Shown one piece after another: positions 25,929 through 62,378 of a DNA stretch of 64,000 nt. A model generated the notes under the pieces. That model saw only the letters and a list, made by a program, of their open reading frames with translations. It was not told the origin of the DNA and did not search any database. The stretch comes from Escherichia coli (lineage in GTDB: Bacteria; Pseudomonadota; Gammaproteobacteria; Enterobacterales; Enterobacteriaceae): assembly GCF_044647545.1 (NCBI RefSeq), contig NZ_CP172818.1; one strand, 5' to 3'. The translations under genes and the position numbers were made by a program. Position 1 is the first letter of the stretch. Every line of letters begins with the position of its first letter.

Positions 25929-26089
25929 ACGACCTCCCTTTGTGAAATATCATGCTAGCGCGCGGGGAGGGATGGCGCAAATGGAGTTGTTGTCGCACTT
26001 GTGCACAGTGCTTGTGTGCATTACAATAATTAAACAATGGACAAGGAGATGAGAATGGAATGGCTCAAAAGAATAATATAAGGAGTTTT

Positions 26090-26347
26090 CGTGATCCTGC
26101 TGGCTGATTTTTTTTTCCATTCAACCCCACATCAAAAAATCCCTCTAAAATCCATACCACTTATCACAAAAGTGGACATCATTAATCCCCCCCCTTCTCT
26201 CCGTTTTCCCCCCCCCCCGAAACGAAAAAAAAAGTTTTGGAAAAAAAAAGAAATTTCCCCAAAAAAAAAAAAAAAAAAAAAAAAAAATAAAAAAGGGAAA
26301 AAAAAAAAGGAAAAAAAATTTTTTTAAAAAAAAAAAAAAAAAAAAAC
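26090..26347. other. Anomalous homopolymer-rich low-complexity tract (probable sequence/assembly artefact); not coding
   Basis: A runs longer than 25 nt, C runs of 8-10 nt and T runs; composition unlike any flanking E. coli sequence; the track ORFs here are poly-K and poly-F. Confidence 0.6.
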
Positions 26348-38316: not shown

Positions 38317-42182
<3,866 letters not shown>

Positions 42183-53976: not shown

Positions 53977-54021
53977 CTATTACCTTTAAAGCGGATGCGA
54001 TTTATATCGCATATTGACTAC

Positions 54022-56143: not shown

Positions 56144-57193
56144 TTATTGCGCAAAGGGATTTTTCGTTTCGTATGACGTGTTATAAAGCGCGTCGGAAAT
56201 TAAATACTGGTAAATATCATCAACAATTTCGATGCCTTCGACGGCGGTTTTGCGTTGTTTAATATCCTGATCCTGTCCGGGATAATAAACCTGGTTAAAA
56301 CCGGGCGCGGGGGTAATGGCATTTAATTCGCGCATGGTCTGGCTAAGATGTTGACGGAATAATTCGCTGGAGGAGAAAAAGTTCGGATTAATAACTACAT
56401 GTAATTGCCCCAAATTACGTCCGGCGTGTAAATCGTCATACATCGAACTGACCTGACGCCCGAACGGTAAGCCGAGTAAGACGCCTGAGAGGACGTCGAT
56501 CATCATCATCAGGCCATAACCTTTCGGTCCGGCAGCCGGGAGCAGGGCGTTAACCGCGAAGGGATCGGTTGTTGGTGCACCGTTTTTATCGACCGCCCAG
56601 GTATCCGGGATAGACATATTACGCGAGCGGGCGTCGAGCACTTTTCCCCATGCCTGTACGGTAGTCGCCATATCAAAGGTAAGAATCTCGTCGCCTTTTC
56701 CCGGCGCGGCAAAGGCCAGTGGGTTAGTGCCGTAGTAAATTTCCGCGCCGCCAAACGGCACCACCATTGGATCGGACTGGCACATCGAAATGCCAATCAA
56801 TCCGGCGCGGGCTGCCTGCTGCACAAAATAAGAGATTGCGCCGCTGTGACCCATCCGGCTGATACCGACCACTGCAACGCCATTTTGCTGGGCAGTTTTG
56901 ATGGCATGTTCCATGCCCATTTTCGCCGCGACCTGTCCGGCGGCATTGTCGGCATGCAAAATTGCTGAACATGGCCCGGTTTCTTCAAGACGAAACTCCG
57001 GTTCGCGGTTGGTGCCGCCTTTTGAAATGCGTTCTGCGTAGTATTCAACGCGCACCGCGCCATGAGAGTGGATCCCTCTGGCATCGGCGTAAACCAATAC
57101 TTCAGCCACGGTTGCAGCGTGCTCACGTTTTAACCCAGCCTGGCAGAGTTTATTCTCGATTAGCTGGTGGAGTGTTTCCCGACTGATTTTCAT
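56144..57193 (-). CDS. allD: Ureidoglycolate dehydrogenase AllD
   Basis: 349-aa ORF MKISRETLHQLIENKLCQAGLKREHAATVAEVLVYADARGIHSHG. Confidence 0.95.
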   Translation of the reverse strand: MKISRETLHQLIENKLCQAGLKREHAATVAEVLVYADARGIHSHGAVRVEYYAERISKGGTNREPEFRLEETGPCSAILHADNAAGQVAAKMGMEHAIKTAQQNGVAVVGISRMGHSGAISYFVQQAARAGLIGISMCQSDPMVVPFGGAEIYYGTNPLAFAAPGKGDEILTFDMATTVQAWGKVLDARSRNMSIPDTWAVDKNGAPTTDPFAVNALLPAAGPKGYGLMMMIDVLSGVLLGLPFGRQVSSMYDDLHAGRNLGQLHVVINPNFFSSSELFRQHLSQTMRELNAITPAPGFNQVYYPGQDQDIKQRKTAVEGIEIVDDIYQYLISDALYNTSYETKNPFAQ

Positions 57194-57509
57194 CTGTCTT
57201 CCTTTTTAACGACGGTGTGAAGCATGACTGCAATTAACATACAGGGAAAATATCTGGATTATGTGATCCAGACAGGCAAAAAAATATAGTTAGAATTTAT
57301 TTGATAATCCGCTCGCTTTTAACCTGGTTTTTAAAACAACTATGCTTATTAAAAAATAACGCGTAATAGTCTGGCGGTTATTTGAATTCTTTTGTTAATA
57401 ATCCCTGTGTGATATTCATCACCTTATTTACTCGTTGTCATCGATACCGTAATCGCCACATTAACACTGCTCGTGCAATTGCCATGGGTGCAATTTTTAA
57501 GGAGTTGTT

Positions 57510-59177
57510 ATGATCCACGCCTTTATTCAAAAAGGGTGTTTTCAGGATTCGGTCAGTTTAATGATTATTTCACGAAAACTCAGCGAATCAGAAAATGTTG
57601 ATGATGTTTCCGTAATGATGGGTACGCCCGCCAATAAAGCGTTATTAGATACCACAGGTTTCTGGCATGACGATTTTAATAACGCCACGCCGAACGATAT
57701 TTGCGTGGCAATTCGTAGCGAAGCGGCGGATGCGGGGATCGCGCAGGCGATTATGCAGCAGCTTGAAGAGGCGCTAAAACAACTGGCGCAGGGGTCAGGC
57801 AGCAGCCAGGCGTTGACGCAGGTGCGTCGCTGGGACAGTGCCTGTCAGAAATTACCCGACGCCAGTCTGGCGCTGATTTCAGTGGCTGGCGAGTATGCGG
57901 CGGAGGTTGCGAACCAGGCGCTGGATCGCAACCTCAACGTGATGATGTTCTCCGATAACGTCACGCTGGAAGATGAAATCCAGCTCAAAACCCGCGCACG
58001 CGATAAAGGCTTGCTGGTGATGGGGCCAGACTGCGGTACGTCGATGATTGCCGCCACGCCGCTGGCTTTTGCTAACGTGATGCCGGAAGGCAACATTGGC
58101 GTCATTGGCGCTTCCGGTACCGGGATTCAGGAACTGTGCTCGCAGATTGCGCTTGCAGGGGAGGGAATTACCCACGCGATTGGTCTTGGCGGGCGCGACC
58201 TCAGCCGTGAAGTGGGCGGCATCAGTGCGCTAACGGCGCTGGAAATGTTATGCACCGATGCGAAAAGCGAAGTGCTGGCATTTGTTTCAAAACCACCTGC
58301 CGAAGTTGTGCGTCTGAAAATTGTTAATGCCATGAAAGCAACCGGCAAACCGACGGTGGCGCTGTTTTTAGGTTATACCCCGGCGGTGGCCCGCGACGAG
58401 AATGTCTGGTTTGCCTCCTCGCTTGATGAGGCCGCACGCCTGGCTTGCCTGCTTTCACGCGTCACGGCGCGACGTAACGCAATAGCACCTGTCAGCAGCG
58501 GATTTATTTGCGGTTTGTATACCGGCGGTACGCTGGCTGCTGAAGCGGCGGGATTACTTGCCGGACACCTTGGCGTGGAAGCCGACGATACCCATCAACA
58601 TGGCATGATGCTCGACGCCGACGGACATCAGATCCTCGACCTGGGCGATGATTTTTACACCGTCGGGCGTCCCCATCCGATGATCGACCCGACCTTACGC
58701 AACCTGTTAATTGCCGATCTCGGCGCTAAACCGCAAGTGCGCGTGTTGCTGCTTGATGTCGTGATTGGCTTCGGTGCGACTGCCGATCCTGCCGCCTCGC
58801 TGGTGAGCGCCTGGCAAAAAGCCTGTGCCGCGCGTCCAGACAATCAACCACTGTATGCCATTGCCACGGTGACAGGCACCGAACGTGACCCGCAATGCCG
58901 CTCGCAACAAATCGCCACGCTGGAAGATGCGGGGATCGCGGTCGTGAGTTCGCTGCCGGAAGCCACCTTGCTGGCGGCAGCGTTAATTCATCCGCTCTCG
59001 CCTGCCACACAGCAACACACACCGTCATTACTGGAAAACGTCGCCGTGATTAACATCGGATTACGCAGCTTTGCGCTGGCGCTACAAAGCGCCAGCAAAC
59101 CGGTTGTGCATTACCAATGGTCGCCAGTCGCCGGCGGCAATAAAAAACTGGCTCGTTTATTAGAACGTTTGCAATAA
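57510..59177 (+). CDS. fdrA: FdrA (succinyl-CoA synthetase alpha-like; proposed oxamate carbamoyltransferase component)
   Basis: 555-aa ORF MIHAFIQKGCFQDSVSLMIISRKLSESENVDDVSVMMGTPANK. Confidence 0.93.
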   Translation: MIHAFIQKGCFQDSVSLMIISRKLSESENVDDVSVMMGTPANKALLDTTGFWHDDFNNATPNDICVAIRSEAADAGIAQAIMQQLEEALKQLAQGSGSSQALTQVRRWDSACQKLPDASLALISVAGEYAAEVANQALDRNLNVMMFSDNVTLEDEIQLKTRARDKGLLVMGPDCGTSMIAATPLAFANVMPEGNIGVIGASGTGIQELCSQIALAGEGITHAIGLGGRDLSREVGGISALTALEMLCTDAKSEVLAFVSKPPAEVVRLKIVNAMKATGKPTVALFLGYTPAVARDENVWFASSLDEAARLACLLSRVTARRNAIAPVSSGFICGLYTGGTLAAEAAGLLAGHLGVEADDTHQHGMMLDADGHQILDLGDDFYTVGRPHPMIDPTLRNLLIADLGAKPQVRVLLLDVVIGFGATADPAASLVSAWQKACAARPDNQPLYAIATVTGTERDPQCRSQQIATLEDAGIAVVSSLPEATLLAAALIHPLSPATQQHTPSLLENVAVINIGLRSFALALQSASKPVVHYQWSPVAGGNKKLARLLERLQ

Positions 59178-59186
59178 GGGGTTCCC

Positions 59187-60446
59187 ATGTTTACATCAGT
59201 GGCGCAAGCCAATGCTGCGGTTATCGAACAAATTCGTCGTGCTCGTCCACACTGGCTGGATGTGCAACCGGCTTCTTCACTTATCAGCGAACTAAACGAG
59301 GGCAAAACACTGCTTCACGCCGGGCCGCCAATGCGCTGGCAGGAGATGACCGGACCCATGAAAGGGGCATGTGTGGGCGCATGTCTGTTTGAAGGCTGGG
59401 CGAAAGATGAAGCGCAGGCGCTGGCAATGCTGGATCAGGGGGAAGTGAACTTCATTCCTTGTCACCATGTGAATGCCGTCGGGCCAATGGGCGGCATTAC
59501 TTCTGCCAGTATGCCGATGCTGGTGGTCGAGAACGTGACCGACGGCAACCGGGCGTACTGCAACCTCAACGAAGGTATCGGCAAAGTGATGCGTTTTGGC
59601 GCTTACGGCGAAGATGTTCTGACTCGCCATCGCTGGATGCGCGATGTGTTAATGCCAGTATTAAGCGCGGCGCTGGGGCGCATGGAGCGCGGTATCGATC
59701 TCACCGCGATGATGGCGCAGGGCATTACCATGGGCGATGAGTTCCATCAACGCAATATTGCTTCCTCAGCACTGTTAATGCGTGCGCTGGCCCCACACAT
59801 TGCTCGCCTCGATCATGATAAACAGCACATCGCGGAAGTGATGGATTTCCTCAGCGTGACCGATCAGTTCTTCCTTAACCTCGCGATGGCTTACTGCAAG
59901 GCGGCGATGGATGCTGGTGCGATGATCCGCGCAGGCAGCATCGTCACGGCTATGACCCGCAACGGCAATATGTTCGGGATTCGGGTAAGCGGGCTGGGCG
60001 AACGCTGGTTTACTGCGCCTGTAAACACTCCCCAAGGGCTGTTTTTCACCGGCTTCTCGCAGGAGCAGGCGAACCCGGATATGGGCGATAGCGCAATTAC
60101 CGAAACCTTTGGTATTGGCGGTGCGGCGATGATCGCAGCGCCTGGCGTAACGCGCTTTGTCGGTGCGGGTGGCATGGAAGCGGCCAGAGCGGTATCTGAA
60201 GAGATGGCGGAAATCTTCCTTGAACGCAATATGCAGTTGCAGATCCCCGGCTGGGATTTCCAGGGCGCGTGCCTGGGGCTGGATATTCGTCGCGTGGTAG
60301 AAACCGGCATTACGCCGCTCATCAATACCGGAATCGCCCATAAAGAGGCGGGGATCGGGCAGATTGGCGCAGGCACTGTGCGGGCACCGTTGGCCTGCTT
60401 TGAACAAGCGCTGGAAGCACTGGCTGAAAGCATGGGGATAGGTTGA
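59187..60446 (+). CDS. ylbE: DUF1116 protein YlbE, intact 419-aa reading frame
   Basis: 419-aa uninterrupted [51 protein letters not shown]; 9 nt after the fdrA stop. Confidence 0.9.
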
Positions 60447-60456
60447 GGAACGCGCA

Positions 60457-61272
60457 ATGACGATCATCCATCCTCTGCTTGCCAGCCGTAGCGCACCGAA
60501 TTATCGCCAGTCCTGGCGGTTAGCGGGCGTGTGGCGGCGGGCGATTAACCTGATGACGGAAAGCGGCGAACTGTTAACGCTGCATCGTCAGGGTAGTGGT
60601 TTCGGCCCCGGAGGATGGGTGCTTCGCCGCGCGCAATTCGATGCGTTATGCGGTGGATTATGCGGCAATGAACGACCACAGGTTGTGGTTCAAGGGATTC
60701 GCCTCGGGCGTTTCACGGTTAAACAGCCACAGCGTTATTGTTTGCTGCGTATTACGCCGCCTGCGCATCCTCAACCGCTTGCAGCGGCATGGATGCAACG
60801 CGCGGAGGAAACCGGGCTTTTCGGGCCGCTGGCGTTGGCGGCAAGCGATCCGCTGCCTGCTGAATTACGCCAGTTTCGTCACTGTTTTCAGGCCGCGCTC
60901 AATGGCGTTAAGACCGACTGGCGGCACTGGCTGGGTAAAGGCCCCGGATTAACGCCAAGTCATGATGACACGCTGAGCGGAATGCTGCTGGCGGCCTGGT
61001 ATTATGGCGCTTTAGATGCGCGCTCCGGTCGCCCGTTTTTTGCCTGTTCCGACAATCTTCAACTCGTTACCACAGCGGTGAGCGTTAATTATTTACGTTA
61101 TGCCGCGCAAGGATATTTCGCCTCGCCACTCCTGCACTTTGTTCATGCTCTGAGTTGCCCGAAACGTACCGCAGCGGCGATCGATTCGCTGCTGGCGCTG
61201 GGGCATACGTCAGGGGCCGATACGCTGCTGGGGTTCTGGCTTGGCCAACAATTATTACAAGGAAAACCATGA
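60457..61272 (+). CDS. ylbF: DUF2877 protein YlbF
   Basis: 271-aa [51 protein letters not shown]; stop overlaps the ybcF start (ATGA). Confidence 0.9.
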
Positions 61273-62162
61273 AAACACTGGTTGTGGCTCTTGGGGGCAA
61301 CGCCTTACTCCAGCGCGGTGAGGCGCTGACGGCAAAAAATCAATATCGCAATATTGCCAGTGCTGTGCCCGCGCTGGCGCGCCTGGCCCGTTCTTATCGT
61401 CTGGCGATTGTTCACGGCAACGGGCCGCAGGTGGGGCTGCTGGCGTTACAGAATCTGGCGTGGAAAGAGGTAGAACCGTATCCGCTGGATGTACTGGTGG
61501 CGGAAAGCCAGGGGATGATTGGCTATATGCTGGCGCAGAGCTTGAGCGCACAGCCGCAGATGCCGCCTGTCACGACGGTGCTGACGCGCATTGAGGTTTC
61601 GCCTGATGATCCGGCGTTTTTGCAGCCAGAGAAGTTTATTGGTCCGGTTTATCAGCCAGAAGAACAAGAGGCACTGGAAGCGGCTTACGGCTGGCAGATG
61701 AAACGTGATGGTAAATATTTACGCCGGGTGGTGGCGTCTCCGCAACCGCGTAAAATTCTCGACAGCGAAGCCATCGAGTTGTTGCTCAAAGAGGGGCATG
61801 TGGTGATTTGCAGTGGCGGCGGCGGTGTGCCTGTGACGAAAGACGGGGTAGGGAGTGAAGCAGTGATTGATAAAGATCTCGCCGCTGCGTTGCTCGCCGA
61901 GCAGATTAATGCCGATGGACTGGTGATCCTCACCGATGCTGATGCGGTATATGAAAACTGGGGAACGCCGCAGCAACGTGCCATTCGCCATGCCACACCG
62001 GATGAGTTAGCGCCATTTGCCAAAGCCGATGGTTCGATGGGGCCGAAGGTAACGGCGGTGAGTGGCTATGTCAGAAGCCGTGGTAAACCTGCGTGGATTG
62101 GGGCGTTATCGCGGATTGAAGAGACGCTGGCGGGCGAAGCGGGGACCTGTATTTCGCTGTAG
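61269..62162 (+). CDS. ybcF: Carbamate kinase-like protein YbcF (ArcC family)
   Basis: Track ORF 61155..62162 trimmed to ATG at 61269 ([39 protein letters not shown]). Confidence 0.93.
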
Positions 62163-62191
62163 TGATGGGCACCAGGCAATTGGCACATCTA

Positions 62192-62378
62192 GCCTGATGC
62201 GATGCTGGCGCGTCTTATCAGGTCTACAGGCGGTGTCGGAACGGTAGGCCGGATAAGGCGTTCACGCCGCATCCGGCAATCGGCACACCATGCCTGATGC
62301 GATGCTGGCGCATCTTATCAGGCCTACAGTCGGTGTTGGAACGGTAGGCCGGATAAGGCGTTCACGCCGCATGCGGCA
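62192..62378. repeat. BIME: two tandem copies of a REP-pair unit (about 87 bp each, period about 100 bp)
   Basis: Unit 1 at 62192..62278 and unit 2 at 62292..62378, each GCCTGATGCGATGCTGGCGC.TCTTATCAGG.CTACAG.CGGTGT.GGAACGGTAGGCCGGATAAGGCGTTCACGCCGCAT.CGGCA, differing at only a few positions. Confidence 0.85.

Follow-up and report, generated by a model that had tools for sequence, protein, structure and literature searches.

Intact ylbE (allG) reading frame in Escherichia coli DNA of apparently non-K-12 origin and the frameshifted allele of legacy K-12 reference records

Gene content of the ylbE locus

The window (the whole stretch of Escherichia coli DNA that was analysed, 64,000 nucleotides of contig NZ_CP172818.1) carries at positions 59187..60446 of the plus strand a single open reading frame with an ATG start, 419 amino acid codons, a TGA stop, and no internal stop codon in the ORF listing. 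The initial annotation had described this stretch as ylbE in one uninterrupted frame of 419 codons; the ORF list and the raw sequence both confirmed the frame, and the name is correct, as the ORF matches genes annotated as ylbE with 100% identity in at least 40 complete genomes. By chance, a 419-codon frame would be open with a probability of roughly (61/64)^419, i.e., ~2e-9 per start. The start and the end of the ORF agree with the annotated ylbE CDS of MG1655 as well as with that of the closest relative, ST648. A Shine-Dalgarno-like motif AAGGGG, presumed to function as such, was seen in the raw sequence at 59176..59181 on the plus strand, 5 nt upstream of the ylbE ATG, and overlaps the stop codon TAA (59175–59177) of the preceding gene fdrA.

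The product of ylbE (allG), the AllG subunit of oxamic transcarbamylase, was assigned to its family by a Pfam scan. The match to PF06545 AllG reached 326.6 bits against a cut-off of 27 (E 8e-98), and residues 87–302 spanned profile positions 1–215 of 215, which makes the protein a member of the family. Pfam describes PF06545 as 'Oxamate carbamoyltransferase subunit AllG', formerly DUF1116. A search of NCBIfam returned no model naming a YlbE/AllG protein. The sole match of AllG in a PDB sequence search (E <= 10) was 3clq, and no AllFGH complex was found there; this only structural relative is an uncharacterised protein of Enterococcus faecalis V583 from structural genomics (2008).

The neighbouring genes are those of the allFGHK operon. 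The first of them, fdrA (allF; 57510..59177, plus strand; 555 aa), encodes a succinyl-CoA-synthetase-alpha-like subunit that matched NCBIfam NF004760 FdrA with 1029 bits and the Pfam domains CoA_binding and Ligase_CoA. The ORF of ylbF (allH; 60457..61272, plus strand; 271 aa), which begins 10 nt after the ylbE stop, encodes the third subunit (Pfam PF11392 AllH, E 2e-29). Its stop codon overlaps the start of ybcF in the sequence ATGA. The latter gene (allK; 61269..62162, plus strand) encodes a catabolic carbamate kinase of 297 aa from the ATG at 61269 and, with 894 bp, is equal in length to MG1655 ybcF; the match to NCBIfam NF006926 (617 bits) corresponds to residues 39–334 of a longer TTG-started ORF containing ybcF. 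On the minus strand, allD (56144..57193; NCBIfam NF011599/TIGR03175, 713 bits) encodes ureidoglycolate dehydrogenase and is transcribed divergently from allFGHK. Ureidoglycolate dehydrogenase yields oxalurate, the substrate of AllFGH. Downstream of the operon lies purK. With fdrA, ylbE, ylbF, and ybcF following each other on one strand, separated by small gaps or overlapping, and with allD in divergent orientation, the region has the layout of the allFGHK operon, and its annotation in the ST648 relative is identical. The entire operon is intact in the window, with gene lengths as in K-12.

The divergent intergenic region between allD and allF (57194..57509, unstranded) presumably holds the allFGHK promoter. 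The promoter scan gave two weak sigma-70-like matches there, at 57234–57262 and 57269–57296, not exceeding those in shuffled sequences. The scan for promoters and terminators produced fewer matches than in shuffles and no terminator match after ybcF.

Two predicted proteins among the homologues of AllG carry both AllG and AllH domains according to Pfam, namely P0002 (548 aa) and P0025 (485 aa). They represent AllG-AllH fusions present in a subset of assemblies, possibly read-through or frameshift artefacts over the 10-nt gap between ylbE and ylbF.

Function of AllFGH and AllK

The function of the gene has already been published as part of the oxamic transcarbamylase AllFGH (Kim & Kim 2024, PMC11326118). 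In K-12 MG1655, fdrA, ylbE, ylbF, and ybcF were found by RT-PCR to be co-transcribed under anaerobic allantoin conditions, a sigma-70 motif was predicted 271 bp upstream of fdrA (Kim et al.), and YbcF was identified as a catabolic carbamate kinase (PMC9843812). The formation of oxamate needs each of allF, allG, and allH, and deletion of allG in MG1655 abolishes it; the purified AllF-AllG-AllH has OXTCase activity and interconverts oxamate and carbamoyl phosphate with oxalurate and Pi (PMC11326118).

In the strain from which the window comes, AllG would be, with AllF and AllH, one of the three subunits that oxamic transcarbamylase requires. The enzyme is expected to convert oxalurate by phosphorolysis to oxamate and carbamoyl phosphate at the end of the anaerobic breakdown of allantoin, and AllK, the fourth product of the operon, would then use carbamoyl phosphate to form ATP and ammonia. 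AllG of the window probably does the same job as AllG of K-12, and its own part in the complex may be catalytic or structural.

The type of reaction, carbamoyl transfer with carbamoyl phosphate, is shared with the classical transcarbamylases (ATCase PyrB, OTCase ArgI/ArgF, and YgeW), and the pair of catabolic OTCase and carbamate kinase is a functional analogue of AllFGH together with AllK (PMC11326118). In contrast to the classical transcarbamylases, however, oxamic transcarbamylase needs three different subunits, and AllFGH does not resemble ATCase or OTCase in sequence (PMC11326118). In agreement with the latter, no OTCase or ATCase domains were detected in AllG, AllF, and AllH by the Pfam scan (E <= 0.001), which returned only AllG, CoA_binding with Ligase_CoA, and AllH.

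The gene ylbE gained a function only in 2024, as AllG of oxamic transcarbamylase; annotations reading 'DUF1116' are out of date.

Comparison with MG1655 and other homologues

In the MG1655 record NC_000913.3, ylbE is annotated as intact at 548357..549616 (1260 bp; YP_009029994.1). This gene (b4572) occupies the same chromosomal position and belongs to the same operon as the gene of the window, with 1260 vs. 1260 nt and 0 indels. The two alleles are separated by 39 substitutions (96.9% nucleotide identity), 34 of them synonymous and 5 non-synonymous, which leaves 414/419 residues (98.8%) of the protein identical. The alignment with MG1655 ylbE had been proposed in the initial annotation as a check of whether the gene there is intact and identical, and gave a divided answer: the MG1655 gene is intact but, with these 39 substitutions, not identical to that of the window.

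The five amino acid changes relative to MG1655 (M81I, D83E, H204Q, F344Y, and G355S) are conservative, and the alignment of 24 Enterobacterales homologues places none of the five residues in an invariant column or in one with conservation of at least 90%. The dN/dS ratio between the window and MG1655 was 0.04, and ylbE is under strong purifying selection. An open frame might also belong to a gene that is decaying or already non-functional in this lineage, and the five differences from K-12 could be read in this way; we give this next to no credence in view of the low dN/dS, the position of the conservative changes outside conserved columns, the operon that is intact throughout with K-12 gene lengths, and the occurrence of this allele, with 100% identity, in at least 40 genomes of human, dog, bird, and wastewater origin. 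Full length is also the norm of the family, homologues from Enterobacterales being mostly 418–423 aa long.

At least 80% of ylbE is present in 5,417 of the 5,426 complete E. coli genomes. The gene in the window is an ordinary, already known gene of the core genome. Taken together, positions 59187–60446 almost certainly represent an ordinary, functional ylbE (allG) from an ST648-type E. coli outside the K-12 lineage, and orthology, synteny, and purifying selection suggest that this allele is active. The biological weight of the finding is very small: the strain would have the complete anaerobic pathway from allantoin to oxamate, like almost every E. coli.

A rare exception was seen in NZ_CP029741.1 (strain AR_0085), where ylbE is reduced to its last 35% (3803131–3803569), which adjoins fdrA; the operon has apparently suffered an internal deletion. 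Two plasmid-borne copies of ylbE were found among the complete E. coli genomes searched.

The frameshifted allele of legacy K-12 records

According to the initial annotation, the MG1655 reference carries ylbE in the form of a frameshifted pseudogene. This is true of the older reference, to judge from resequencing papers and the W3110 record, but not of the current NC_000913.3 with its intact gene of 1260 bp. Relative to NC_000913.2, 547,694 A>G and 547,831 +G are entered in a breseq table, both under 'ylbE (pseudogene)' (PMC5460176), and the two differences together turn the ylbE pseudogene into a coding region (PMC5460176, PMC4759930, PMC3045373). The 'ylbE+' allele occurs also in ATCC 47076 (PMC4759930). 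The state of NC_000913.2 was deduced from these papers and from the record of W3110, where the coordinates are the same. In W3110 NC_007779.1 (Y75_RS02660) and in CIT, ylbE is flagged as 'frameshifted', a pseudogene of 1259 bp at the old coordinates 547581..548839. The start of ylbE at 547,581 in the W3110 numbering and at 548,357 in NC_000913.3 gives an offset of 776 nt between the old and the current coordinates.

By this offset, 547,831 +G maps to a run of five G residues (G5) at gene nt 252–256, within codons Q84-G85-E86, and the published 547,694 A>G corresponds to gene nt 114. The run lies in the window at 59438..59442 on the plus strand and is in frame there; in the legacy records it consists of four residues (G4), and the loss of one G leads to a stop at codon 87. 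Gene nt 114 (59300..59300, plus strand) is G in the window and in the current MG1655 record (codon E38, GAG) and A in legacy K-12 (GAA, synonymous). The same locus is thus represented by G4 and A114 in legacy W3110/NC_000913.2 and by G5 and G114 in the window and in NC_000913.3. The W3110 allele differs from that of NC_000913.3 at two points only, nt 114 G>A and a run shortened by one G. These are the same two differences that were published against NC_000913.2. The ylbE of the window is not the frameshifted pseudogene: the run at 59438–59442 is G5, and the frame is open to codon 419.

The distribution of both forms of the run was followed in complete E. coli genomes by exact-match queries. 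With K-12 flanks (63-nt query), G4 was found in 4 of the 5,416 genomes, namely W3110 NC_007779.1, CIT, LIM, and CAR, and with window-type flanks it occurred in no complete E. coli genome; these queries covered two flank haplotypes, K-12 and window, and G4 on other flanks is indistinguishable by them. All four G4 records are legacy or derived K-12 records, and all of them place the gene at the old coordinate numbering. The exact G5 site with K-12 flanks (64 nt) was present in 3,878 genomes. The best 60 matches to the ylbE allele of NC_000913.3 were all 100% identical over 1260 nt, and they include resequenced MG1655 stocks, C600, DH5alpha, DH1, J53, NCM3722, and AG100.

These data bear on the reading according to which K-12 MG1655 truly has a ylbE pseudogene and an intact ylbE is a diagnostic marker of an ancestral-type, non-K-12 strain. 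The old records do carry the frameshift, the W3110 record NC_007779.1 is flagged accordingly, and papers call ylbE a pseudogene in NC_000913.2. Nevertheless, we regard this reading as very improbable: ylbE is intact in NC_000913.3 as well as in the best 60 matches, K-12 laboratory assemblies included, which are identical to it, and G4 is confined to the four legacy or derived records among 5,416 genomes. Moreover, MG1655 stops producing oxamate when allG is deleted, and its wild-type gene is therefore functional (PMC11326118). As a diagnostic, the intactness of ylbE is refuted, the non-K-12 origin being indicated by a divergence of 3% instead. The frameshift is confined to legacy K-12 reference records and was removed in NC_000913.3; it is not a trait of the K-12 lineage. 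A literature search for ylbE in connection with the U00096.3 version change found no papers; the change is documented by the records themselves and by the resequencing papers.

The G4/A114 allele reflects either a mistake in the early sequencing or a variant private to the clones that were sequenced. That it was a real variant carried by the clones behind the 1997/2006 K-12 references, with the G5 run as a natural slippage site, seems to us very unlikely; if true, slippage would occasionally switch off oxamic transcarbamylase in laboratory lineages. A stronger form of this idea takes the G5 run as a slippage-prone contingency site at which ylbE is naturally turned on and off, so that the legacy G4 would be real and the window would show the 'on' phase. 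The lesion does sit in a homopolymer, and it comes with a second, synonymous change at nt 114, which one would not quite expect from a base-calling slip alone. However, a run of 5 nt is short for phase variation, and the K-12-flank query recovered G4 only from the four legacy K-12 records, against 3,878 genomes with G5 on the same flanks and none with G4 on window-type flanks. Phase variation at the G run was rejected after these population queries for G4 and G5, and we consider a contingency site here extremely improbable.

The 'ylbE pseudogene' of K-12 is accordingly a matter of superseded references (NC_000913.2, and still the W3110 record) and is unfit as a strain marker. 'Mutations' reported at 547,694 and 547,831 against the old reference are reference artefacts, not evolved changes.

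Strain identity

Apart from a missing island and short spacer differences, the window runs collinear with MG1655 490,126–553,132 at 96.4–98.1% identity. The island comprises MG1655 522,805–530,047 (rhsD-ybbC-ylbH-ybbD-ylbI-ylbG), and the corresponding point of the window is 40701/40990. The absence of an Rhs element, mentioned in the initial annotation, was thereby upheld in the alignment with MG1655: the rhsD island is lacking in the window and in ST648 alike. Over the 24.5 kb from 39,500 to 64,000, the window is 99.9% identical to ST648-type genomes. In complete genomes of this type, ybbP is followed directly by mnmH/selU, without the Rhs element. As these closest relatives also have no rhsD island, its absence is typical of the lineage. 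A collapsed assembly was considered as the cause of the missing rhsD and rejected, the direct transition from ybbP to mnmH being found in the complete ST648-type genomes too.

The earlier conclusion that the sequence is not MG1655 stands, supported by the 39 substitutions in ylbE, a divergence of ~2–3.5% over the window, and the identity to ST648; one part of its original basis, the intactness of ylbE, does not, since the gene is intact in the current MG1655 record. The accompanying suggestion of an ancestral allele holds only trivially, an intact gene being the universal state. With at least 80% of ylbE in nearly all complete genomes and the G4 allele in 4 only, intactness is uninformative on strain identity, and the non-K-12 origin that we assign to the window on the evidence of its sequence rests on divergence, not on the intactness of ylbE.

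Sequence irregularities elsewhere in the window

In two patches the window breaks down into homopolymers and deviates there from relatives that are otherwise identical. The first, at 26096–26346, lies in a gene for a RelE/ParE (HigB-type) toxin upstream of ybaQ/higA, the CDS of which starts at 26060 and then degenerates into runs of A27, A21, C11, and several of A8–A11, roughly in register with real sequence. In relatives, the toxin gene is a clean CDS of 303 nt (WP_000057541.1 in NZ_CP033850). The divergence extends from near codon 13 to exactly the toxin stop codon, and the flanks are 100% identical. The patch looks like sequence corruption or low-quality consensus rather than biology. The second, at 40702–41031, covers the spacer from the 3' end of ybbP to mnmH/selU, i.e., the site of the K-12 rhsD island. 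It is G/A-rich with runs of G7, G8, and A12, is matched by none of the complete E. coli genomes, and shares with the 593-nt spacer of the ST648 relatives only one short resemblance of 33 nt. Corruption as in the first patch may account for it. Both patches leave ylbE unaffected.

The spacer between ybcF and purK (62169–62368) is made up of two tandem direct repeats of 100 nt that are 90% identical. Each repeat ends in a REP/BIME-like palindrome of the GCCGGATAAGGCGTTCACGCCGCATCCGGC type, and a related copy is located in the ybaQ-copA spacer of MG1655. About 30 nt of the ybcF-purK spacer in the window are absent at the corresponding point of MG1655. In the glxK-allE spacer, a deletion of 14 nt (CTTTTTTTACCTGA) relative to ST648 was observed at 54013, where ~118 nt of MG1655 correspond to 5 nt of the window.
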